The notes under the pieces: model-generated
What the model was told of the DNA's origin: nothing
The model's input: the letters and a program-made list of their open reading frames with translations, nothing else
Database searches by the model: none
In this document: positions 1,205-60,600 of the stretch, piece after piece
How the letters are laid out: the number at the start of each line of letters is the position of its first letter
Position numbering within the stretch: position 1 is the stretch's first letter
Position numbers and translations under genes: made by a program
Origin: Phyllobates terribilis
Taxonomy: Eukaryota
Assembly (NCBI RefSeq): GCF_046119375.1
Contig: NW_027362762.1
Coordinates: 733,150,001 to 733,214,000, forward strand
Direction of reading: 5' to 3'
DNA: 64,000 nucleotides

Positions 1205-2251
1205 TGTGACACCCCAGGGGTCTGGTTGCCACAGTAATAGAGATATTATGTCTGAGAGCAAGTGGGAGGTTTCTCTGGTCAGGAGTCCTAAGCATGCAAC
1301 ACGGCCCACCCAGACCTGGGAGGGGAGGAATCTGCCCTTATAAACTGGGTCTGGGGCGGGATTAGGTGAGACAGAGCCTGCAGAACAAGCAGAGCAGTCA
1401 GAGCCTGGAGAGGGAAAGTGAGAACAGGAGCTCTGTAGGAGCAGAGGCAGAAGGCCAGGGGCTGTGAGCAGAGATATAGCTTGCCCTGGCTGAAGTTACT
1501 AAAACCGGACACAGGAGTCCGAGGCTGTGGGGACTGATATATACCCAGCAGCAGAAACCAGCCGGCAGGGGATTCCAGGTCCTCTGGCCATAGAAGCCCG
1601 GAGGCTCAGTCACAAAGAAGGGACCAGCGCCGCCATCCAGGAGCGGAGGCTAACAGAAGGCCCCAAGGCACCAGCCATACGGGTGAGCACCACACGGTAT
1701 ACTCAGGGACGTGGGCTACTTGTAACCGCTGAAAGCAAGGTAGCCAGGAAGAGTGCAGATAAACGGGGAGGCCTACAACTCCACCTGGCCAGGGGAACTC
1801 CTGCTTGCTCGCAGACTGACCAGGCCCCTTATACTAGCCAGTACTCCCGGGAGGGTCTGCCTTGTACCATCAGTAAAGACCCTGAACTGCACCTCACGTC
1901 TCTGTGATTCCTTGCCGCACCAGCACCATTAGCACTGGGACCCTCACACCATCACTCCCATCATCTCTCACATTAGCTGCCCTGAGGCAATACTTCTCCC
2001 GTGGGGAGTTATCCCATACTCGGCTGCGCAAACAACATCAGCCTCAGCGGTCGGCAGCGTAGCGGCGGTCCCCACTGACCGCAATCCACGAGTGGCGTAG
2101 TCGGACATTTGCTATACATTAAGACTGCCACTGGTTTGACCACCCTGGGCACGGACCGGGTCACCGCCACACGGAGACTACAACCCCCAGCATTCTAGAA
2201 CAGGCCCGGTTCCGGGTTCCCCTGCACAACACAGGCCCAGGGGGCACGTCA
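1205..2251 (+). mobile_element. Solo LTR, family 1, copy 1 (Gypsy-like, ~1.05 kb)
   Basis: Starts TGTGACACCCCAGGGG and ends CACGTCA, flanked by CATG at 1201-1204 and 2252-2255. TATA-like ttataaa near 1338, AGTAAA near 1873. Highly similar to 10802-11826. Confidence 0.8.
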
Positions 2252-12894: not shown

Positions 12895-15800
12895 TTACTC
12901 TGCTGTCATTTGGTGGTGATGAGAAGTCTGGCCAATCCAGCCCTTGTTCATTTTGATAAGGGTCAGCTTGTCAGCATTGTCAGTTAACAGGCGAGTGCGC
13001 TTATCAGTTATAATTCCCCCAGTGGCACTAAAAACACGCTCCGATAACACGCTAGCGGCAGGGCAGGCCAGGACCTCCAAGGCGTACAGAGCGAGTTCAT
13101 TCCAAGTGTCCAGCTTGGATACCCAATAATTAAAAGGCACAGAGGAATCACGGAGGACGCTGGTACGATCGGCAAGGTACTCCCTCACCATCTTTTGAAA
13201 CTTTCCACTCCTTGTGAGAGTACCCCGCGCCTCAGGGCCTGTAAGCTGGGCGGGTGTCAGAAAACTGTCCCAGAACGTTGACAGTGTTCCCCTGCCTCTG
13301 CTGGATTGGAGTTGCATCTCTCTCGCCTGTACGCCTTGGTTGGGCAACGAACTGTGACCTCTGCCGCTAGCGTGTTCAGATGGGAATTTTTTTAAGAGTT
13401 CTGCAGCAAGGGCCTTCTGGTATTGCCCCATTTTTGTAGACCTCTCCACCTCAGGAATAAGAGAGTGAAAGTTCTCCTTGTAGCGGGGGTCTACAAGTGT
13501 CACCAACCAGTAATGACTGTCACCCAACATTTTGACAACGCGAGGGTCAAGGTTAAGGCAGCGTAACATAAAGTCAGCCATGCGTGCCAGACTGGTAACG
13601 GGCAAGATTTCCGTGTCCTCACCAAGATGACGACTGACCATGCTCTCCTCCTCCTCCTCTTCCTCCTCCCCCCTGTCCTCAGGCCACCCACGCTGAACCG
13701 ACGGTATGACACTTGTACAGGTACTACCGTCTACAACGCATGATAGCAGCTCCTGTTCTTCCTCCTCCTCCTCCTCCTCTCCCTCATTGTCCCCCAATGC
13801 ACGTTGGGATGAGATGAGGCTGGGCTGTGTGTAATCGCCCGCTACGGCTTCTTGATCCATCTCATCATACTCTGGCTGCAATGCCTCCTCTTTAATTCTC
13901 TGCAGAGAGCGTTGCAAAAGACAGACAAGTGGGATGCTGACACTAATGATGGCGTCATCGCCACTCACCATCTTGGTGGCCTCCTCAAAGTTTGTCAGGA
14001 TGGTACATATGTCAGACATCCAGGTCCACTCCTGAGGTCTTATGTGTGGAGTCTGACCTGAATATCGACGGCCTTGTTGCAGCTGGTACTCCACAACTGC
14101 TCTCTTCTGCTCACAAATCCTTTGCAACATGTGGAGGGTAGAGTTCCAACGTATGGGGACATCACACACCAGTCGGTGTGCCGGAAGCTGCAAACGCTGC
14201 TGCAACACAGCAAGGGCGGAGGAAGCTGTAGCCAACTTGCGAAAATGAGCTGACAGGCGGCGTACTTTCACGAGCAGATCTCGCAACTCGGGGTACGATT
14301 TAAGAAACCGCTGAACCACGAGGTTAAGCGCATGAGCCAGGCATGGTACGTGTGTGATCTCACCTCGCCTCAGAGCCGCCACCAGGTTACGGCCATTGTC
14401 ACACACGACCATGCCGGGATGTAGGTTCAGCGGTCTCAGCCACAGATCTGCCTGCTCTTTCACAGCTGTCCACAACTCACAAGCAGTGTGAGGTTTATCA
14501 CCTAAGCTTATGAGTTTCAGCACAGCCTGTTGCCGCTTGGCGGAGGCAGTACTGCAATGCTTCTAGCTTGTAACTGATGTGGTGATATCTGAGATGGAGG
14601 CTGAACATGAGGAGGAGGAGGAGGAGGATGCGCAGGAGCTGTACACTGTGGGGGCAACTCTGACTGACATAGGGCCCTCAATCCTCGGTGTGGGGAGGAT
14701 GTGTTCCGTCCCAAGGTCCGACTGGGTCCCGGCTTCCACTATGTTTACCCAGTGTGCCGTCAGAGAGATGTACCGTCCCTGGCCACAAGCACTTGTCCAC
14801 GTGTCCGTTGTCAGGTGGACTCTCCCAGTAACTGCGTTGTTGAGGGCACGGCAGATGCTTTGGGACACGTGCTTGTGTAGTGCGGGTATGGCACACCGGG
14901 CAAAATAGTGTCGGCTGGGGACCGAGTACCGAGGGACGGCCACCGCCATAAGATTGCGGAAGGATACCGTCTCCACCAGCCTAAAAGGCAGCATTTCCAA
15001 TGCAAGCCGTCGTGAAATGTGCGAATTTAGGACTGTGGCCTGTGGGGCGTTAGCTGCGAATTTCCGCTTTCGTTCAAAGGTCTGGGATATGGACAATTGA
15101 ATGCTGCGGTGGGACGTGGACGTGGACGTTGATGCTGTTTCTTGAGAAACTGCCATAACAAGTGAAGACTAAGAGGAGGGGGCATCTTTACATGCAGTAT
15201 GGACAGGGGATTGCCTTGCACACACAACAGGGGGTTCTATTGCACGCACAACAGTGGAAGAAGCTGTGGTGACACCCGCTGACACTGGTCGTGGACCTTG
15301 GGTTTCGCCCCACAATGTCGGGTGCTTTGCTGCCATGTGCCTGATCATGCTGGTGGTGGTCAGGCTGGTAGTTTTGTCACCCCTGCTGATGCTGGCATGG
15401 CAGGTGGAACATATGGCCTTTTTGGGGTTATCAGCAGAGTCTTTAAAAAAATTCCAGACTCTGGAAGACCTACCGCTTGTACTGGCAACGTCCCTCGTGT
15501 TGGTGTTATGGGGAACGGTTGCCTGCCTTCTGTCTGCGGCCACCACACTGCTTCTTCCTGCCTGTTGGGGTACTCTGCCTCCCTCCCCCTGTGTACTGCT
15601 GGCCTCACTCTGCATGTCCTCCTTCCACGTTGGGTCAGTTACTAGATCATCCACCACCTCCTCCTCTTCCACTTGCGCACCACGATCCTCCTCCTCACTT
15701 CCTGGCAATTGTGTCTAGTCATCGTCCACCTCTTGTGACAGATTGCCAACATCGACTTCCTGTGGCCGTGGCTGTTCAAATATTTGGGCATCGCAACATG

Positions 15801-29476: not shown

Positions 29477-31109
29477 CCGTACAGACCAAAAGTTTGGACA
29501 CACCTTCTCATTTAAAGATTTTTCTGTATTTTCATGACTATGAAAATTGTACATTCACACTGAAGGCATCAAAACTATGAATTAACACATGTGGAATTAT
29601 ATACTTAACAAAAAAGTGTGAAACAACTGAAAATATGTCTTATATTCTAGGTTCTTCAAAGTAGCCACCTTTTGCTTTGATGACTGCTTTGCACACTCTT
29701 GGCATTCTCGTGATGAGCTTCAAGAGGTAGTCACCCGAAATGGTCTTCCAACAATCTTGAAGGAGTTTCCAGAGATGCTTAGCACTTGTTGGCCCTTTTG
29801 CCTTCACTCTGCGGTCCAGCTCACCCCAAACCATCTCGATTGGGTTCAGGTCTGGTGACTATGGAGGCCAGGTCATCTGGCGTAGCACCCCATCACTCTC
29901 CTTCTTGGTCAAATAGCCCTTACACAGCCTGGAGGTGTGTTAGGGGTCATTGTCCTGTTGAAAAATAAATGATGGTCCAACTAAACGCAAACCGGATGGA
30001 ATAGCATGCCGCTGCAAGATGCTGTGGTAGCCATGCTGGTTCAGTATGCCTTCAATTTTGAATAAATCCCCAACAGTGTCACCAGCAAAGCACCCCCACA
30101 CCATCACACCTCCTCCTCCATGCTTCACGGTGGGAACAAGGCAAGTAGAGTCCATCCGTTCACCTTTTCTACGTCGCACAAAGACACGGTGGTTGGAACC
30201 AAAGATCTCAAATTTGGACTCATCAGACCAAAGCACAGATTTCCACTGGTCTAATGTCCATTCCTTGTGTTCTTTAGCCCAAACAAGTCTCTTCTGCTTG
30301 TTGCCTGTCCTTAGCAGTGGTTTCCTAGCAGCTATTTTACCATGAAGGCCTGCTGCACAAAGTCTCCTCTTAACAGTTGTTGAAGACATGTGTCTGCTGC
30401 TAGAACTCTGTGTGGCATTGACCTGGTCTCTAATCTGAGCTGCTGTTAACCTGCGATTTCTGAGGCTGGTGACTCGGATAAACTTATCCTCAGAAGCAGA
30501 GGTGACTCTTGGTCTTCCTGTCCTGAGGCGGTCCTCATGTGAGCCAGTTTCTTTGTAGCGCTTGATGGTTTTTGCAACTGCACTTGAGGACACTTTCAAA
30601 GTTTTCCCAATTTTTCGGACTGACTGACCTTCATTTCTTAAAGTAATGATGGCCACTCGTTTTTCTTTACTTAGCTGCTTTTTTCTTGCCATAATACAAA
30701 TTCTAACAGTCTATTAAGTAGGACTATCAGCTGTGTATCTAACAGACTTCTGCACAACACAACTGATGGTCCCAATCCCATTAATAAGGCAAGAAATCCC
30801 ACTTATTAAACCCGACAGGGCACTCCTGTGAAGTGAAAACCATTTCCGGTAACTACCTCTTGAAGCTCATCAAGAGAATGCCAAGAGTGTGCAAAGCAGT
30901 CATCAAAGCAAAAGGTGGCTACTTTGAAGAACCTAGAATATAAGACATTTTCAGTTATTTCACACTTTTTTGTTAAGTATATACAGTAATTCCACATGTG
31001 TTAATTCATAGTTTTAATGCCTTCAGTGTGAATGTACAATTTTCATAGTCATGAAAATACAGAAAAATCTTTAAATGAGAAGGTGTGTCCAAACTTTTGG
31101 TCTGTACTG
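29477..31109 (-). mobile_element. Full-length Tc1 DNA transposon (1633 bp) with long (~230-bp) TIRs and TA TSD
   Basis: TA-ccgtacagaccaaaagtttggacac ... gtgtccaaacttttggtctgtactg-TA. Confidence 0.93.
29640..30692 (-). pseudogene. Tc1 transposase (DD34E type), 351 codons in one frame with two in-frame stops
   Basis: ORFs 29940..30692 and 29640..29834 share a frame. Motifs WSDESK, QQDNDP and LNPIEMV are present. Stops are TAA after DNDP and TAG after WPP. Confidence 0.92.
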
Positions 31110-38820: not shown

Positions 38821-39877
38821 GCATAGAGTGGCTTGCAAAAGCATTCACCACACCCACATTTTTCCATTTTTCATGTCTTGCAACTTCACAACCTGGAATT
38901 TCACAGGTTTTTTTTGAGGGTTTGCATCAGTTCATGTAAAGAACATGCCCACAACTGTTAACATTTGGTTTCCTTTTAAATGTGAAGCAAACAACAAATA
39001 GGACAAATAGCTGAAAACTTCAGTGAGCATAACTATTCACCCCCTAAAGTCAGTACTTTGTAGAGCCTCCTTTTGTGGAAATTACAGTTGCAAGTCACTT
39101 TTGATAAGTCTCTTTGAGCTCTCCACAACTTGCCACTGGGATTTTTGTCCATTCCTCAAGGCAAAACTGCTCCAGCTCCTTCAAGTTAGATGGTTTCCTC
39201 TGGTGAATAGCAATCTTCAAGTCTGGCCACAGATTCTCAATTGGATTAAGGCCTGGGCTTTGGCTAGGCCACGCCAAAACATTTACATGTTTCCACTTGA
39301 ATGTTGCTTTAGCAGTATGCTTTGGGCCACTGTCTTGTTAGGAGGTGAACTTCCATCCCAGTCTCAAATCACTGACAGACTGAAACAGGTTTTGCTTGAG
39401 AATATCACTGTATTTTGCACCATAAATCTTCAAATCGACTCAAACCATTTTTCCTGTCCCTGCTGCTTAAAAATATCCTTACAGCATTATACTGCCACCA
39501 CCATGTTTCACTGTGGGGATGGTGTTCTTGGGGTGATAAATTGTGTTGTTTGGTTCCAGACATAGCATTTGCCTTTGTGGAAAAAAGTTACATTTTGGTC
39601 TCATCTGACCACAGCACCTTCCTCCATACATTTGGGGACTCTCCCACATGTCTTTTGGCAAACTCAAAACTAGCCTCATAATTTTTCTGGTAAGTAAAGG
39701 CTTTTTCTGTTCACACTTCCATAAAGGCCACCTATATGGAGTGTACAGCTTATTATGGTTGTATGGGCAGATACTCCATTCTCTGATTGGGAACTCTGCA
39801 GCTCCTTCATGGTTACCTTTGGTCTCAGTGCTGCCTCTCTGATTAATGCTTACCTTTCCCAGGCTGATAGTTTTGGT

Positions 39878-45353: not shown

Positions 45354-45376
45354 TTAATAACCCCTTCACGACTTTG

Positions 45377-46680
45377 TGTGACGCTCAGACGTCCGGTGTA
45401 AGCCCTTTTAGTTCACCCTGGGTGTTGGGGGACTTGGTGTCGGGTCCTGTGATGGAGAAATGGGATGCAGCCGTGGCCCGGACCCGACCCATGCTCAGGG
45501 CCGTCACATTAAAAGGAGATGGTGAGGGCTTATCCGGGTTGAGTGGCTAATTAACGACTACGCCACCTGTGGTGCCTGGTGAAGGGCCACCAGCGCCGCT
45601 GCAGTCCACTGAGGCATGGTTTTATGGCGGCCAGAGTTCTTACTACTCCCCACAGGCGGAGCAAGGCCTCAGGGCAGAGGGACAGGAGGATGGGGGTAGC
45701 AGTAGAGGAGAAGGGAAGCCGCGTACTGCGGTGTGGCGCAGAAATAACAGTCCGGAGGCCATAGGGGTGAACTTCCAAGGCTTTACTCACTTAGATGGCA
45801 AAGGAAGGCGACTCCCTGCTCCTCACGGGGTCCTGCGCTCACCAGGGGCGGGGGTCCGACAACCTCCGAGTAAGTCCAGCATTCAGTCGGGACCCTACAG
45901 CAGAGTGTTCCTGAACTACAGACCGAATCCTTTCCTGTCCGTGTGTGTGCAAATAGGCAGGGACTCCCTCTGAGCACTTCTCAGAACAAGGGTACGGGTG
46001 GCAGCTCCGCTCCGTCCGATACCCGGTGGAATCCTCAGGGCCTACCAGGCTTTCCCGTCCAGGACATAGAGTAGCAAGGTCGGGTGTCGGGGGCCGGTAC
46101 CCCTCTTGCAGCCGGAGTCCCTCTGAATATATCAGCATGGCGAGGACAGGTGGCATACTCCGCTCCGTCTGCTTCCTGCCTGGGATCCATTTGCTGTGGA
46201 GCCACACTCTTAAGCTCCGGGCCTTCTTGGTCCTGGTCATTGGCTGGGTTGAGACATTCCTTGTCTACAACCTGCCTCTCGTCCCAAGGCCGGGGTACGA
46301 GGGCTGTGTCTCCCAACCCTGCAGGCCCACACAGGATCTGCGCTCCGGGAGGGAGGTCACAGTAACACACAGTATTTATCAGCACAAAGACCAAGATCAA
46401 AGATGGCTTTCTATTAAATATGAAATTTAAAGTGTAACTAACTTGTAGGTCCTCCACCCTCACCCACTAACTGGTTCCCCTAACTCTTGGTTCCCCAGTC
46501 TCCCTGTAACCAGGGGAGCAGCACCTAGTGCATACTAGCCCCCTCTGGTGGAGAAATGTGGTGTTGGATGTAAGGGCTGGGTCACGACTATCACACTGGC
46601 CTTACCTCAGAAGAGGAACACTACACTCCATTAGAGAAGTGCAGCATCCCTGTGGCGGTCGAACCCTCAGGGGCGCCACA
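45377..46680 (-). repeat. 3' LTR of the CSD element (1304 bp)
   Basis: Preceded on the minus strand by the polypurine tract AGGGGGGAA. Near-identical to 48640-49924. Confidence 0.92.
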
Positions 46681-47233
46681 TTCCCCCCTGGTAAAACACA
46701 GCACGTCCGCGGGCTGCAAAAGAAGTAACACCCAGGAAATTTTCTTTTTAATATAAACATAACCATCTTCCCTTTATGGGAGGCACAACATATCCTTAAA
46801 AGTTGCATAACAGGGTATACAGTATAAAAGTACAAAATTACAAAAGTATAAAATTATAAAAGCATTTTTCCAGAGACATTTTGTGCAAACAAACAGGTTA
46901 AAGTGCAAGGACGCAGAGTCAGTTCAGAAGTGCGAGGGACCTGTCCTAAACCCCCAACGTGGGCCCTGGGGTGGCTGCAGGGCATAAAGATCCCAAGTTG
47001 GACCTCCCACAGAGCCACCCTGACAGGTTTTTCTTCTGAGGTCTTGAGGTAGAAGAAAAGGCACGGTCTTATATAAAACCAATATGGAGCACCTAAAAAG
47101 ATGCAAACTATTTACAATGGAAGGAGTCTGTCTGCTGCAAGTCCGCAGGGACACATGTCTCTAGAAAATCAAAATTAACATAATATAGCAAAGCAACCAA
47201 TTCAACTCAATTGTAACAGCAGCCGGAGGCTGC

Positions 47234-48259
47234 TCAGTCCATGTCTTCCTGCCGGGGAAAGGGCTCATTCCTCCCGACAGAGGCTAGCCGGTCCTCCACA
47301 GATGAGTGCGCGGGGGCCTCGCTCCTGGACACTTTATGGATATCCAGGGCGTACCAGCCTCGCACTCCATTGTGGCGGGTGTACGTTACCATGTCGCCCA
47401 CGGCGAAACTCCGGCCAGGGTGTCCCTTTTTGAACTGGGGCTCAACGTCACGTCGATTAAAGAAGACGTCCCGATCCAGCCCGGGACTCCTTATGAAGCC
47501 CCATCCTGCCACACGGTGGAAGCGGACCACCTGCCCTTCTTCACGGGGGCTTGGGTTGGACGCCTCCCTCTGGCGGGCCCTGGACTTGGCAGCTTTGGCC
47601 CGCACCTGAAGCTGCTCACAGCGGAGCTCCCGTTCCTGCTGCTCCTGACTCAGCTGCTGAATTTGTTGGAGGCAGTACTCACTCCTCCTCTGGGCTTCAG
47701 CTTGGGTTTCCCTGGGGAAGCCTATTAGGTTGCCCCCCTGGTTATCCCAGGCCCACTCTTCTGCCGCCGGGCAGGTAACTGTGGGGGCCGGAAGCGGCGT
47801 TAGGGGTTGCTGTAGCAGGCCCGAGTACGCGGACCATTCCGGGTTGGGGCCCGTGGACCCCCATGCAGATCCAGGTTCCTCTGGGACGGGAGGTGAGAGA
47901 CCACAGTGGTCTCCGGAGATGGCGGTGGTTTGGAGCTCTGCGGAGAAGGCTTCCTCCCAGGATACAGCACCTGGGAACTGGCACTCGGACCACAGGTCCA
48001 GGAGGGGCTCGGCCTGCTCCACGGCCTGGGTAAGGGCTCTAGACTCACCCGGTCCTAGGCCGCAGACACCTTCCAGGGTCTCTTCTTCTTGGGCCGTCGC
48101 TCCTTGGGTACAGGCCTCACTCCTCCGCCGCTGCTCTTCCTGCTGCCGCGCAGCTGCCTCCATGAACTCCCGGGCCAGGTTGCCCGCCGGTCCGTAGCTG
48201 GGGCCTGCAGAGGCTCCCAGGTGGGGATGGGATCTGGCTCTGTCTCCACCGGCATCCAT
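47234..48259 (-). CDS. 341-aa protein: low-complexity N-terminus, Q/E/R-rich coiled coil, C-terminal cold-shock domain
   Basis: Intact ORF with strong Kozak context (actATGG). CSD at about 47330-47545: GQVVRFHRVAGWGFI (RNP1-like), DVFFN (RNP2-like), RSFAVGDMVTYTRHNGVRGWYALDI. Confidence 0.85.
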   Translation of the reverse strand: MDAGGDRARSHPHLGASAGPSYGPAGNLAREFMEAAARQQEEQRRRSEACTQGATAQEEETLEGVCGLGPGESRALTQAVEQAEPLLDLWSECQFPGAVSWEEAFSAELQTTAISGDHCGLSPPVPEEPGSAWGSTGPNPEWSAYSGLLQQPLTPLPAPTVTCPAAEEWAWDNQGGNLIGFPRETQAEAQRRSEYCLQQIQQLSQEQQERELRCEQLQVRAKAAKSRARQREASNPSPREEGQVVRFHRVAGWGFIRSPGLDRDVFFNRRDVEPQFKKGHPGRSFAVGDMVTYTRHNGVRGWYALDIHKVSRSEAPAHSSVEDRLASVGRNEPFPRQEDMD

Positions 48260-48617
48260 AGTCGCTGCTAGTGGTGACGATGCTGGAACTCGAAAAATGG
48301 CTGCACCTCTTCGTCTCCACCTCTTTTTGGGGCGGCTCTAAGGCTGCAGGCCATCTGGCACTCCCTCGGACGTCCCCTCCGGGGTGATGGACACTACCCC
48401 GCGGACAGTCTCTAATGGAAGGGGCGGTCTGATCTCTTGGCGCCATTGGGGAGCCAGGCCCACGATAGGAGGTGCTGAGACGCTGTCCCTTACTCACATG
48501 ATGGCGTCCATTCTTCTTGGGCGGGCGCCATTTTAGGTGAAAAGGCGACAGTCTGTTTAGAAAGGCGTGCAGTACCCGGTAGCAATGGGCACTCTTCTTC
48601 ATTGCTGCGGGCACGAG

Positions 48618-48635
48618 ATCCTGCCGACTACGCCA
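48618..48635 (-). promoter_or_regulatory. Primer-binding site complementary to the 3' end of tRNA-Ser
   Basis: Minus strand TGGCGTAGTCGGCAGGAT is the complement of ...ATCCTGCCGACTACG-CCA, the 3' end of vertebrate tRNA-Ser(AGA/TGA) as recalled. Confidence 0.9.
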
Positions 48636-48639
48636 GGTT

Positions 48640-49924
48640 CGTGACGCTCAGACGTCTGGTGTAAGCCCTTTTAGTTCACCCTGGGTGTTGGGGGACTCGG
48701 TGTTGGGTCCTGTGATAGAGAGATGGGATGCAGCCGTGGCCCGGACCTGACCCGTGCTCAGGGCCGTCACATTAAAAGGAGATGGTGAGGGCTTATCCGG
48801 GTTGAGTGGCTAATTAACGACTACGCCACCTGTGGTGCCTGGTGAAGGGCCACCAGCGCCGCTGCAGTCCGCTGAGGCATGGTTTTATGGCGGCCAGAGT
48901 TCTTACTACTCCCCACAGGCGGAGCAAGGCCTCAGGGCAGAGGGACAGGAGGATGGGGGTAGCAGTAGAGGAGAAGGGAAGCCGCGTCCCGCGGTGTGGC
49001 ACAGAAATAACAGTCCGGAGGCCATAGGGGTGAACTTCCAAGGCTTTACTCACTTAGATGGCAAAGGAAGACGACTCCCTGCTCCTCACGGAGTACTGCG
49101 CTCACCAGGGGTGGGGGTCCGACAACCTCCGAGTAAGTCCAGCATTCAGTCGGGACCCTACAGCAGAGTGTTCCTGAACTACAGACCGAATCCTTTCCTG
49201 TCCGTGTGTGTGCAAATAGGCCGGGACTCCCTCTGAGCTCTTCTCAGAACAAGGGTACGGGTGGCAGCTCCGCTCCGTCCGATACCCAGTGGGATCCTCA
49301 GGGCCTACCGGGCTTTCCCGTCCAGGACATAGAGTAGCAAGGTCGGGTGTCGGGGGCCGGTACCCCTCTTTCAGCCGGAGTCCCTCTGAATATATCAGCA
49401 CGGCGAGGACAGGTGGCATACTCCGCTCCGTCTGCATCCTGCCTGGGATCCATTTGCTGTGGAGCCACACTCTTAAGCTCCGGGCCTTCTTGGTCCTGGT
49501 CATTGGCCGGGTTGAGACATTCCTTGTCTACAACCTTCCCCTCGTCCCAAGGCCGGGGTATGAGGGCTGTGTCTCCCGACCCTGCAGGCCCACACAAGAT
49601 CTGCGCTCCGGGAGGGAGGTCACAGTAACACACAGTATTTATCAGCACAAAGACCAAGATCAAAGATGGCTTTCTATTAAATATGAAATTTAAAGTGTAA
49701 CTAACTTGTAGGTCCTCCACCCTCACCCACTAACTGGTTCCCCTAACTCTTGGTTCCCCAGTCTCCCTGTAACCAGGGAGCAGCACCTAGTGCATACTAG
49801 CTCCCTCTGGTGGAGAAGTGTGGTGTTGGATGTAAGGGCTGGGTCACGACTATCACACTGGCCTTACCTCAGAGGAGGAACACTACACTCCATTAGAGAA
49901 GTGCAGCAACCCTGTGGCGCCACA
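48640..49924 (-). repeat. 5' LTR of the CSD element (1285 bp)
   Basis: Followed on the minus strand by AACC and the PBS. Lacks ~18 nt (between GGCG microhomologies) that is present near the start of the other LTR. Confidence 0.92.
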
Positions 49925-52900
49925 TTTGGACGTATCCATACGTCCAGGTTGGTAAGTTCTTCCCGACCTCGGACATATGGATACGTCCAGGCAATTTTGC
50001 GCGCACGATCGCCACCGGGTGTTCAGCTGACATGACAGTTCACACCCGCCACTCACTGCCAGAAGCGGTGCCTGGTTTTAAGGGGCAGTTTAACCCCCTA
50101 AATGCTGCGATCAATATAGATCACAGCATTTAGAAGGCAGAGGGAGGGGCTGATCATTGCCAAGGTGACCCAACGTTGTCATGACGACTTCTGGTCACCA
50201 AGCACTAGCAAGCTTGTTTGACAATGCGCAGTACATGGTCTAACAAGCTTGTGTCTGCAGCACTGACAGGTTATAAAGCATAGCATTGCTCCTGCATTGC
50301 AATGCTTTATAACTGCGAATATAGAGAGCGCAAAAGTGAAAGTCTCAAAGTGAAAACAATTTTAAAATATTTTTTCAAAAATCAAAAAATAACAAAAAAA
50401 ATATATGTATATTGTACCCATAAATAAATATTTTTGTGACAAAAAAAAGTAGATATATTTGGTATTGCCACATCCGGAGTGACCTGCCCTATAAAAATGT
50501 CATACTAGTTAACCCCTTCAGTGAACACCATAAAACAAATTAATAAAAAATTGGAATAGAAAGCGATCAAAAAATGTCATCTGCCCAACAATGATACCAA
50601 CAAAAACTTCAACTCATCCCACAAAATACAAGCCACCACATGACTCTGTTGGCAGAAATATGGAAAAATTATTGCTCTCAAATATGGTAATGCAAAACTG
50701 TTTTGTTTTTTTTAAAAAGTGTCTTTTAGTGTGTGACAGCTGCCAATCATAAAAATCCAATATAAATCTGCTACCACTGTAATCTCACCGATCCGAAGAA
50801 TAAAGTAGTCTAATCACTTATACCACACAAGGAACGGTGTAAAAAATAAATAAAACCAATTCTTCACCTGCTGTTGATTTGTTCATACTGCCTCTCAAAG
50901 ATCGCAATAAAACACGGCTCATATTCATCCTGCGCTCTGCGCTGAGCGCTTACACCGGGGTTTCCGTGTAAATCTCTGAAATACATGATTCAGACGGAAG
51001 CCCAGGGAGAAGATTCCCTGTAATGAGGCAGATGGAGACCCTGTGGACTCTGTCTGGCCTGTGATCTGGTGGTGTCCGTCTTTTTAGGCGTGCATAAAAG
51101 TGCCATCAGCCACAGTTTTGTGCACCTCTGAAAAAAAGAACACCGCTGAACAGAGGACAGACGGAGTCCAGAGTAACTCTGCTGCTTCATTATCGTGAAT
51201 GGATCCCTTGTGGGTTTCATCTAAATCATGTCACTCGGAGATTTAGATGGAAACCCCAATATAAGTGCTCAGTATAGAGCGCCAGATAAGTGTGATCCCA
51301 AATTTTATGTAAATTGTTACTAACAAAAGCTTCAAATCAATCCACAAAAAAGCCCTCTCACAGGCCCGTCATCTGTCAATGGAAATATAGGGGGATACCG
51401 CATTACTGGTAGGACAGGGGAAATTTAAAAGTGAAATGGCTCCTCGCCCCAAAAGAAATTCAGCAAATTCTGCACTACCAAATCCAAATGCCCCCCTCCC
51501 TTCTGAGCCCACAGTGTGCCTAAACCACATTTAGGTTCCACATATTTGGCATTTCTGTAGCGATAAGAGCCCACCTAATTTACGGATGCATGTCTACAGA
51601 AGCATGAGCTGGGAACTACATCGTACTGGTCACTAAAACATACTGGGGACTACAACGTTCTGGGGACTACAACAGCAATTTGCAATTTTCACTCAGACAC
51701 ATCAACTGCTGCTTGTTTCCGAAAAACACCCATGGAGTCAACATCGTCGCTACACTTGTAGATAAAATGGGGTCTCTTGAGGAGTGATTCTGCTCTTCTA
51801 GCACTTAGAGGCTCTGTATATGGAGTCCCCAAAATATTCTAGGAAAATCTGTGCTCCAGGAGGCGAATAGCGCTCCATCCCTCCCGAGTCTCGCCGTATG
51901 CCTAAGAGCCACATGTGGGGTATTCACCACGTTCAGCAGAAATTCTGTGACAAATTTTGGTCCTATTTCTACCCATTTTCCCATGTGAAAAGGTAAAATC
52001 TGAATTTTGGTGGTAAAAAGGTAATTATTTTTTCTTCACTGTCCAATGGTATAAAATTCTGTGACACATCTGTGGTATCAATATGATCACGTTCCCCCCC
52101 TAGATCAATTCATTGAGGGGTGTAGTCTGTAAAATGCGATCACTTATGGGGATTCTGCTGTTCTAGGACCTCAGGGGCTCTCCCAGTAAGTCATGGCACC
52201 TGCAAACCGTAATTGTAAAATTTGCACTATTATATGGAGCTCCTTCCCTTCTGAGCTTTTCACTGTATTGGCGCACTCAAGAGACATTTTTACAGCAAAT
52301 TAAGGTGCATTTTTACCTACTAGCTTTAGAAAAATTAAAAACTTGGGGCTAAAACAACATTTTAGTTGTAAAAATGTAATTTTTCTTTCTTCACAGCCCA
52401 ATGGTATAAAATTCTGTGAGGCACATGTGGTGTCAATAGGATCACTGCACCCCTAGATGAATTCATTCCAGCAAAATCTGAACTCCAATATGGAGCTTCT
52501 TCCCTTCTGAGCTTTGTACTGTGCCTCAAAATTAGTTTTCGACCACATATAAGGTATCGGTGTACTCAGGAGAAATTTCACAACAAATTTTGGGGTCCAT
52601 CTTCTTCTGCTATCCTTGTAAAAATGAAAAAAATTGAGGCTAAAACAACATTTTTGTGAGAAAAATATATATTTTTTCATTTTCACAGATCAACGTAGCA
52701 AAATTCTGTGAAGCACCTGGTGGTTCAAGGTGTTCACCACACATCTAGATAAATTCCTTGAGGGGTCTAGTTTCCAAAATGGCATCACTTATGGGGGTTT
52801 CCACTGTTTAGGCACATCAGGGGCTCTCCAAACGTGACAGGACACTCGCAGACCATTCCAACAAAGTCTGTGTTCCAAACATCACTCCTACCTTTCTGAG

Positions 52901-55816: not shown

Positions 55817-56210
55817 CTACATTGGATGTTGCAACCACTGTTTGGCATCCATAGGATGCAACTGTGCAACATATGCATCATGGCCAAGTCTGAGGTCCAG
55901 AGCACTCTGGAAGAGGTTTTCATCCACGATATCTCTGAACTTGGCCGCATTCATGTTTCCTTCAATTGCAACCAGTCGTCCTGTCCCTGCAGCTGAAAAA
56001 CACCCCCATAGCATGATGCTGCCACCATCATGTTTCACTGTTGGGATTATGTTGGGCAGGTGATGAGCAGTGCCTGGTTTTCTCCACACATACCACTTAG
56101 AATTATCAACAAAAAGTTCTATTTTCGTCTCATCAGACCAGAGAATCTTATTTCTCATAGTCTGTGAGTCCTTCATGTGTTTTTGAGCAAACTCTATGCG
56201 GGCTTTCAGT
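55817..56210 (-). mobile_element. Tc1 transposase fragment
   Basis: [10 protein letters not shown]...[16 protein letters not shown]. Confidence 0.8.
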
Positions 56211-57666: not shown

Positions 57667-60600
57667 TGTGGTAGATTGACTCACTCGGCTTCTTAAAAAG
57701 GCAGACACAGAAACCATTTCTATTTAAAGTGCGGCTGGTTTATTGCAATCCTCATAAACCACGTCACCAAAAAACGTAAATGCAGCCTTTGTCCAGCAGA
57801 AGGTAAAACATAAAATAACAAGCCCATACAATAGTGCTGGTTAGCCCACCTGGCTTAGAATCCAGCTTCCATGTCCTTTAACAAAGGCATTCAATCCAGG
57901 AGACCTGCAATCTCCATACATGCATGTGTGAAACAAACAGATCAGAGCTTTCACCTCCAGGTCCACCCCACACCAAATGCTCTAAAAGCTGTGAATTTTA
58001 TCCTCTGACCTCCTTCCTGTCTACAGGTGTTCACTCATCCTAGCACTAAAGATGGCTAATTAACCCTTATTCCTTTGTGTGCTGGAACCTTTTTCCTATG
58101 TTTAATTACTGGAGCTAACAATCTCAGTGCTACCTATCTCCCCTCCAGTACTTTGCTAGTGACTTTGTCACATATTCCACTCCTCTGCCCAAAGCCGTAG
58201 GTTTTGGCACCTTCAGGCACTAAACAGGGTAGTCTAAAGTGGCATCTGCATTACTGTGCAGCTTCCCAGTCCTGTGTGCCTCATGAAAGATGAAGACCTA
58301 TAGCCTTGATTTTCAACTCTTGGAACGCCATCCCTGCTTCAAGAGGTCATTTGGTCATTTACATCTTCGTGCCCTTAAGAAGGTCTATCAGGGGGTGTGG
58401 CTATCATGGCGAAATTCGGTATACTCCGCTGATAGTATCCCATCATTCCCAGAAATGCCCGAAGCTGTTCCTTGGAGACCGGTTTCGGCCAATTTTGGAC
58501 TGCCTCCACCTTATTCAGCTGTGGCTTTACTTTGCTTCTTCCAATGATGTAGCCCAGGTATTTTCCTTTCTTTTTCCCAATGGCACACTTCTTTGGGTTT
58601 ATGGTAAACCCCCCTTTCCTCAGTGCATAAAAGCATGGCCTGGACCTTCTGCAGATGACTTCCCCAATCTGGGCTTAATATCACAATATCATCGAGGTAA
58701 GCTGCAGCATACTTTTTATGAGGGGCTAAGATCCGGTCTATGTCCCTCCGGAAGGTAGCCGGGTCTCTTTGCAGGCCAAATGGGCTTTTAGTATACTGGA
58801 AGCAACCGTCCGGTGTAAAATTGGTCGTCGTCTTCTTTTTGGCACCTTGAGAGACGGGGATTTGCCAATAACCTTTCGTTAGGTCTAGGGAGGTGATGTA
58901 TGTGACTGACCATAGCTTTGATATGAGATCATAGTCGCGGGGTATCAGATATGCGTCAATTTTAGCCCCTTCCATTAAAAACAACTTGCGGTGGGCTTCG
59001 GGGATTCTATACGGCTTTTGGTTCACCTGTATATGTGGTTCCATCAGGATTCTATGTTCACCAACCTGCATATGTCTTGGTAACTCTGAAAACAGGTTTT
59101 GGTTCTGCTGAAGAAGTTCTTGGCACTGTTGTTTCTGGGCCGGTGACAGTGTCACCTTCTGGTCTTTCCAGCCCACGTGGAATTTCAACTTGGTTTCCCT
59201 GTTGCCCTGCCTTGATGAATAGCAGCACGAGAGGATTTTGGAATGGAGAGGTGGTAGCGATTAACTGGCAGGTGGGACAGGACTTGCAATATTTTAGGAT
59301 TTCACAGTGACATCTGCGCCAATAGTACCTCTGCATGACCCGTTGTTGAGTTTTGTCCTCCCCCAGATGGCCACCCAAGACATGTGAATGGGCCCTGTCC
59401 AACACTCTTTATCTAAAGGTTCCTGGTACCAATAATTGCTCCACTATCTCCTCCTTCACCTTAGTGACCTGGTACAGTAAGCCCCCACTCAACATGAAAT
59501 AGGGAAACCTTGTGTCAGATCCTGACTCCTGTGTTATGCCATTTATGACAGTTACCTTATTGAATGCCTCTTTTATAGTTAGGTCCCTATGTTGGGTGAA
59601 CCCCAATTTTTCTGTGGTCATCCCTATCTCAGGAATGTCTGCCTCAGGGGATACTACCGTCTCCTCTTCACCTACTACACAGAAGGGAAACTCGTCAGAC
59701 TCTGAGGTTGGTGTGACTTTTTTAGGGCCAACCCATTTCTTACCTGAGCAATTGAGGTCTCCACCCCTCCCCTACAAGTCCCAAAACTACACATATTCCC
59801 AACCTATGATAATTGAGTGCAACAAATCCTGGACCACGCTGACCTCATGGGATTCAATACCTCGGGCTGTCTCAATTACCACTCTGGCCACCGGATAGTC
59901 TTTAGCATCCCTATGAATGCAGCGGATGCCCACCTTCTTCCCAGGGATCAATTGGAGAGGGAGTGTGTCCCTTTTGAGGGTCACCAAACTCCCTGAGTCT
60001 AGTAGTCCAGTCATTTTCAGGCCATTCACTTTGACAGGACAAGCTTAGGGCCCCTTGCCGGGTGGACAGTCCACACTGCAAGCTGGATATGCGAAAAAGG
60101 AACACCGGTGTCCTATGCTGCAGTCCATTTGCTCGGTGGTCAAGGGACAATGGACTGATATATGACCTGGGCTATGACATCTCCAGCAAATTACATCCCC
60201 CGATGAGGGCCTTGGCATGACCTCTGACGCCCCCTTGGACTTTGGATGCCCCACCTCCTTTTTAACATCAGCCTCCCCAGTATGGAATGGGTTGCCTCGA
60301 CCCCCTGATACCTTTCGACCAGTCCAACCTAGTAATTGGTGTTCCAGGGATTTCCCTGGGCAACCCAAGTATGCATCGGGCTCGGTAGGGAGTGCACGAA
60401 CCGATCCATTACAATTCACTCTACCATCTGCGCTGGGGTAGAGGACTCCGGCTGTAATCACTTTTGGATGAGATGCAACAGATCAAACATTTGGGAGCGA
60501 GGGGGTTTGTCCCGGTGAAATGCCCAGCGGTGTCACCCCCAAGCGCACCAACATTTCTGTTTTCAATTTTTCATATTCTTTGGCGTCCTGTAAGGAAAAA

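Follow-up and report, generated by a model that had tools for sequence, protein, structure and literature searches.

Long terminal repeat retroelements of poison frogs carry a cold-shock-domain gene under purifying selection and are probably mobilised by a Ty3/Gypsy helper

A stretch of 64,000 nucleotides from Phyllobates terribilis (contig NW_027362762.1, positions 733,150,001 to 733,214,000; the whole stretch is called the window in the following) contains a long terminal repeat (LTR) retroelement whose only gene encodes a protein with a cold-shock domain (CSD). This locus raises the question of why an element that has no replication genes should keep such a gene. Non-autonomous LTR elements usually carry nothing or a remnant of gag, and a non-gag gene with a ratio of nonsynonymous to synonymous divergence (dN/dS) of about 0.13 implies an undescribed function in the transposition cycle. 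The answer that we favour, with even confidence, is that the window element is a decaying member of a large superfamily found in poison frogs, made up of non-autonomous derivatives of Ty3/Gypsy elements that are mobilised by a helper and encode a CSD protein acting on RNA with a bias towards the copy that encoded it (cis bias).

The element occupies positions 45377-49924 and is read in minus-strand sense (Table 1). In agreement with the preliminary description of the locus, all signals expected of a retrotransposing element were present, namely two LTRs of approximately 1.3 kb that differ by substitutions and an indel, an 18-nucleotide primer-binding site (PBS) of the tRNA-Ser type, a polypurine tract (PPT) abutting the 3' LTR, and a 4-bp target-site duplication (TSD). 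The LTRs align with 1251 matches, 34 substitutions, and gaps of 1 bp and 18 bp (Kimura two-parameter distance 0.027). Among the substitutions, 26 are transitions, 16 of these in CpG context. At its inner end, the 5' LTR has TCACG rather than TCACA. Profile searches of the element gave no match to gag, protease, reverse transcriptase (RT), or integrase, and the 1959-bp interior contains a single open reading frame (ORF) of 341 amino acids (aa), as described earlier. A scan of the element against Rfam gave no match, either. Three copies elsewhere in the genome (L183, L184, and L185) hold tRNA sequence copied past the PBS. In L183, it extends to a TGA anticodon and a long variable arm, which we take to indicate a class II tRNA-Ser. 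This extended-primer pattern has 28 exact matches genome-wide, of which these three were examined; ARAGORN and Rfam detected no tRNA gene at the three loci, which are element copies with extended primer sequence.

The family is present in many copies, as had been supposed. In the 10.57-Gb assembly, a 31-base motif from the CSD had 28,992 matches compared with 19 for the reversed control. The true number of motif copies is at least as high, and partial and tandem copies are counted in it. A protein search of the genome yielded 42,506 candidates, and all 118 scored matches were at least 66% identical over long stretches. A search with the Pfam CSD profile added families with 41-55% identity in the helix-CSD region and frames of 500-800 codons. 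Of 76 CSD loci retrieved with their flanks, 67 were LTR-paired; none of these contained gag or pol, and 36 had an exact 4-bp TSD. The median LTR identity of the paired copies was 96.7% (100% in two copies), with a few pairs at 70-80% that may be mismatched LTRs. If most copies are full length, the roughly 29,000 motif copies would amount to roughly 130 Mb or more than 1% of the assembly, making the family a real contributor to a giant genome. The repeats of a related draft assembly are largely unclassified (PMC12208295; this and the papers below are cited for the accessible part of their text). Close single-domain relatives in protein collections came only from Phyllobates, Ranitomeya, and Anomaloglossus; for other species the search covered protein records, and the absence of relatives beyond poison frogs may reflect repeat masking. 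The four other best protein matches examined were unnamed or protist multi-CSD proteins. A 13-row family tree, in which 2 of 10 branches were well supported, did not resolve the position of the proteins of the other species.

The predicted 341-aa protein comprises an N-terminal helix (aa 24-57), a disordered linker rich in Pro, Ala, and Glu, a long helix, the CSD, and a disordered tail. The C-terminal CSD with an OB fold, which had been proposed from sequence motifs, was recovered by profile, AlphaFold, and Foldseek alike. The window copy itself (aa 241-309) matches the Pfam CSD profile PF00313 below the 27-bit cut-off (E=1.2e-4, 22.4 bits), whereas three of five scanned sister ORFs reach it and the CSDs of distant families score 32-37 bits (best relative 36.9). 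A profile built from 18 family members matches YBX1/YBX2 (E 3e-8) and CspA (8e-8), with scores of 37 bits for YBX1 and 36 bits for CspA that reflect distant similarity only. The AlphaFold (AF2) model consists of the long helix and a five-stranded OB barrel (pLDDT 80); the full-length model is of low confidence outside these two parts and contains no capsid fold. The best Foldseek matches of the modelled CSD are Csp proteins (probability 1.0, TM score 0.70-0.79 by target length). A single-sequence search of the PDB gave no match, and a search of the ESM Atlas provided only leads, all below 0.9. Of the coiled coil described earlier, the long predicted helix was retained, but not its coiled-coil nature.

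Aromatic positions of the CSD are highly conserved among 124 copies (F247 in 124, W253 in 121, F255 in 123, and F266 in 121). F255 and F266 align with F74 and F85 of YB-1, which are RNA-contacting residues (PMC7226217). The long beta3-beta4 loop that sets YB-1 apart from bacterial CSDs, and that confers binding of double-stranded DNA when introduced into CspA (PMC7226217), has a counterpart in the element CSD. This Y-box-type loop would favour capture from a Y-box mRNA, while YBX and Csp as possible donors are not distinguished by profile scores. In the host, YBX has canonical exons, which are separated by introns in the CSD region, whereas the element CSD is intronless, and the element protein has neither the near-invariant vertebrate CSD sequence nor the long charged C-terminal domain typical of YBX. 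Two other origins were rejected. None of the domains of host CSDE1 exceeds 9 bits against the family profile, compared with 37 for YBX1, the two scores coming from different but overlapping family profiles, and a degenerate gag is contradicted by BLASTP comparisons to the helper Gag described below (best E 0.65-0.72) and by the absence of a capsid fold. A CSDE1-like processed retrocopy was found at L121/L122 (G000:C1:734434000-734453999); part of it is duplicated, and LINE sequence interrupts it.

The CSD is under purifying selection in the transposing lineages. In a sample chosen without regard to the ORF (14 CSD copies, 91 non-independent pairs, Jukes-Cantor correction), dN/dS amounted to 0.13 in the CSD, with a third-position excess (0.356 vs 0.102 and 0.058), and to 0.15 in the long helix. 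The corresponding helper values were 0.22 for gag (21 copies) and 0.14 for the protease region (17 copies). Other parts of the frame had higher ratios, namely 0.31 for an upstream helix, 0.54 for the linker, and 0.88 for the first 60 codons. In the latter, divergence was equal at the three codon positions, suggesting conservation at the nucleotide rather than the protein level. Among the subfamilies nearer to the window copy, net between-group ratios ranged from 0.18 to 0.57 (kappa 1) or 0.23 to 0.71 (kappa 4), and the upper bootstrap limit stayed below 1 in all 21 comparisons with kappa 1 and in 20 of 21 with kappa 4. These copies, of which 46 of 79 distinct ones were assigned to groups, had been selected for their protein score, so that the ratio is biased downwards. 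Many relatives have a frame that starts 80 codons earlier. Where its ATG could be located, this longer frame is open in 8 of 21 copies of B, 7 of 10 of C, and 10 of 15 distant ones. It is closed just after that ATG in 18 of 19 copies of the group to which the window copy belongs, and the net ratio between two closed-frame subgroups is still 0.18 (interval 0.09-0.34). Selection hence persists there, and the ORF of 341 aa is probably the one that functions in this group.

After insertion, individual copies decay. The 79 sister copies contain 41 stops in total, and 46 are stop-free; private changes found in a single copy have a ratio of nonsynonymous to synonymous changes (N/S) of 1.65-2.70 compared with a neutral expectation of 2.2-3.0. 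Under neutral decay, the probability that a copy of the window element's age has no stop is 0.56-0.63. The intact ORF, on which the preliminary description had placed weight, is therefore real but not special, and no evidence of host use can be drawn from it. The three outcomes that the same description had named as fatal to its proposal did not occur, since a CSD fold is present, the element is multi-copy, and the ORF does not evolve neutrally in the transposing lineages.

A candidate helper adjoins one of the CSD copies. It is a 7.8-kb Ty3/Gypsy element with a PNMA-like gag, a pol with the order protease, RT, RNase H, and integrase, LTRs that are 99.8% identical, and the same tRNA-Ser PBS. 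L040/L090 and L170 represent autonomous Gypsy elements with PNMA-like gag and tRNA-Ser PBS. An env gene was not detected in the Gypsy element, as no ORF of at least 200 aa is located between pol and the 3' LTR. The Gag frame includes a CCHC zinc knuckle (E 1.6e-4). Three distant CSD families share the 3' part of the LTR and the PBS leader with the Gypsy element (69-73% identity over 350-390 bp). The stretches in common with the window copy are shorter and cover the PBS and leader start (93% over 30 bp including the PBS), the PPT/LTR junction (76% over 51 bp), and short segments of the LTR. The anticipated gag-pol partner with the same LTRs and PBS was thus found with respect to the PBS, while the LTR match is only partial.

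The PBS-leader pattern common to both classes has 48,650 matches genome-wide, and an RT motif has 39,108, some of which may belong to Gypsy lineages other than the helper. On contig C1, the first 40 PBS-leader sites in sequence order, chosen without regard to the ORF, comprised 22 gag/pol sites, 14 CSD sites, four with neither, and none with both; this sample favours young copies. No CSD was found within 3 kb of the PBS at the 22 gag/pol sites or in one full-length Gypsy copy. One of the 22 (L177, G000:C1:9103375-9106274) is a chimeric short element, in which the helper LTR and 5' gag are followed in frame by the acidic tail of the CSD element and its 3' end. The junction has 2,387 matches, so the chimera itself was amplified. 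Template switching would produce such a chimera in particles where the RNAs of helper and CSD element meet. The cis sequences in common (PBS, leader, PPT, and a portion of the LTR), together with the amplified chimera, make this Gypsy the likely helper by which the CSD element is presumably mobilised.

What the CSD protein contributes to this cycle can be deduced with less certainty. In the reading that we favour, the element RNA would be packaged, reverse-transcribed, and integrated by the Gag-Pol of the helper. The CSD protein would bind preferentially the RNA that encoded it, in the manner of Y-box proteins, and would stabilise and remodel this RNA in germ cells. Element RNA treated in this way might compete better for helper particles. 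The advantage would be quantitative, with CSD-less copies still being mobilised for a while as secondary parasites. A precedent for a CSD cofactor exists in YB-1, the depletion of which reduces HIV RNA and virion output (PMC6040738). On population-genetic grounds, selection on the gene can last only if the copy that encodes it gains from the product, which makes a cis-biased stabiliser or chaperone the most likely reading, ahead of a counter-defence in trans and of a role at the DNA stage.

Several observations weigh against a cis-biased factor. Helix and CSD were removed by internal deletions in L142, L147, and L154, three of the 17 CSD-family copies of the ORF-blind sample. Two of the deletion junctions, both at short repeats, are multi-copy (150 and 807 matches with at most two mismatches). 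The amplification of these derivatives means that the CSD is not needed in cis, and a role in trans fits it equally well. Selection is weaker in the window's own subfamilies (net ratios 0.18-0.71), where intervals for the CSD alone often include 1. The equivalents of W65 and H87 of YB-1 are R/K and N/T in the element CSDs, which may entail a different binding specificity. Expression of the protein and its binding to RNA are predictions from sequence. No RNA data set was listed as containing the interior of the window element. Three sequencing runs of unspecified type cover all 30 bins of the interior of a young family, but they may be DNA and are given no weight here. The proposal that the protein replaces nucleocapsid or is a required packaging factor was abandoned, because the helper has its own CCHC motif and CSD-less derivatives reach hundreds to thousands of copies. 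The CSD protein is an optional accessory factor kept by selection, and would most likely bind the element's own RNA.

A less probable but serious alternative is a counter-defence acting in trans, in which the protein would mimic or compete with host Y-box proteins or shield retrotransposon RNA from Piwi-interacting RNA (piRNA) and decay pathways, thereby aiding all co-expressed elements including the helper. Free riders on such a common product would amplify just as the CSD-less families do, both classes are hugely abundant, and the Y-box-like loop and the profile match are in line with mimicry. A pure public good should erode, however, yet the low dN/dS of the CSD is maintained across many parallel lineages. 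Unlikely, in comparison, is a DNA-stage factor that binds single- or double-stranded DNA and aids the strand transfers of reverse transcription or activates the LTR promoter. The counterpart of the YB-1 loop that lends CspA affinity for double-stranded DNA and the R/K-rich helix, which could contact DNA, are compatible with this role, but the helper encodes its own nucleocapsid for strand transfer and CSD-less copies complete replication. Domestication, by which the frog would keep the ORF for its own benefit as with the Gag of zebrafish BHIKHARI, has a precedent among ORFs of non-autonomous elements (PMC12067270) and the open frame of the window copy in its favour; it is very improbable given that this open frame is expected by chance and that individual copies accumulate stops and private changes as described above. 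The idea of a captured, functionless passenger, the deletion of which is tolerated, is largely refuted by the dN/dS, the third-position excess, and conservation across families with 41-55% identity and across three genera, and retains next to no probability.

Slightly short of even confidence, we envisage a three-tier ecosystem that helped to inflate poison-frog genomes, with the Gypsy element as helper, a satellite class whose Y-box-type protein was captured and has diverged strongly, and CSD-less cheaters that exploit both. The satellite class would have swapped gag-pol for a CSD protein that favours its own RNA or blunts germ-line RNA silencing, and this accessory gene may have been under protease-level constraint since before the split of Dendrobatidae and Aromobatidae. 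The coexistence of helper, CSD carriers, and CSD-less derivatives is a natural experiment on whether the benefit acts in cis or in trans.

Table 1. Coordinates of the retroelement and its parts in the window
Feature	Positions	Strand	Basis
Left TSD, TTTG	45373..45376	.	flank comparison
3' LTR, 1304 bp, TG...CA	45377..46680	-	LTR alignment
PPT, directly abutting the 3' LTR	46681..46689	-	
ORF, 341 aa	47234..48259	-	only long sense ORF
CSD, aa 241-309, with RNP1-like GWGFI, RNP2-like VFFN, and a long beta3-beta4 loop as in Y-box proteins	47333..47539	-	
Long helix with many charged residues, aa 186-234, conserved between families	47558..47704	-	predicted
Upstream in-frame stretch from the ATG at 48499, closed by stops at 48494-48496 and 48338-48340, with apparent conservation of the nucleotide sequence rather than the protein	48260..48499	-	
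Leader following the PBS, candidate packaging/priming signal	48570..48617	-	
PBS, 18 nt, tRNA-Ser	48618..48635	-	
5' LTR, 1285 bp, with an 18-bp deletion near the outer end	48640..49924	-	
Right TSD, TTTG	49925..49928	.	flank comparison

A second PBS-like 10-mer is located in each LTR (45556-45565 and 48819-48828) and also occurs in the LTRs of the helper and of distant families. A short match to the element LTR (71%) was found on the opposite strand at window positions 1977-2103. Other transposons in the window (29643-30940, 12898-15168, 58393-59260, 39065-39707, and 55892-56206) comprise a Tc1 copy that is 94% like another genomic copy, hAT-like frames, a decayed Gypsy pol, and older Tc1 fragments. 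Outside the window, CSD fragments lie behind unrelated repeat sequence at L100, L113, and L115 and may be part of a different kind of repeat. Gene annotation is contaminated by the ORF as well: pieces of it occur in fusion with host genes or other domains in the predicted poison-frog proteins P0002, P0153, P0154, P0155, P0156, and P0158. The fusion partners include an R3H coiled-coil protein and a UVS.2-like protein, and the fusions are annotation artefacts or cases of exonisation.

Literature searches, whose scope did not include Repbase, Dfam, most subscription journals, and supplements, retrieved no report of a CSD-bearing LTR element. In papers on frog genomes or LTR elements, the term "cold shock" does not occur in the main text of PMC11152451 and PMC6278860, nor does "cold" in that of PMC4131045 and PMC12208295. 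Known single-ORF elements without pol include TR-GAG of plants, short mobile non-autonomous LTR elements whose ORF is a Gag (PMC4350172). In vertebrates, an ORF without pol is found in the LTR elements BHIKHARI of zebrafish, the transposition of which was inferred to need a partner (PMC12067270), and 1a11 and xretpos of Xenopus (PMC4585706). The single ORF of the frog element is not a Gag; in contrast to that of TR-GAG, it has no Gag or capsid similarity and ends in a CSD. BHIKHARI and 1a11, as far as described in these sources, encode Gag or Gag-like proteins and are present in tens to hundreds of copies, whereas the frog element encodes a CSD protein, has about 29,000 motif copies, and has an identified Gypsy partner. 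Additional cargo is also known from Helenus and Ajax, which carry small-RNA-derived sequence (PMC10886601), and from autonomous LTR elements of rotifers and crocodilian endogenous retroviruses, for which extra ORFs have been reported (PMC5408684, PMC4299795).

A close relative in terms of cis signals is the co-resident autonomous Ty3/Gypsy element, which has the same PBS, leader, PPT, LTR ends, and 3' part of the LTR and recombines with the CSD element, but differs in encoding gag-pol with a zinc knuckle and in lacking the CSD in the copies covered above. With YBX1/YBX2 and CspA, the element protein has the OB-fold CSD and the RNP1/RNP2 aromatics in common, and with YBX also the long loop. It differs from YBX in the replaced W65 and H87 equivalents, the intronless gene, the long helix preceding the CSD, and the absence of a long basic/acidic C-terminal domain. 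In LINE-1, ORF1p is a retroelement-encoded protein that combines a helix with an RNA-binding domain (RRM) and is essential for the element. As a cis-acting chaperone, ORF1p is the model proposed here for the CSD protein, with an RRM in place of the CSD and no homology implied, whereas the CSD is dispensable in cis.

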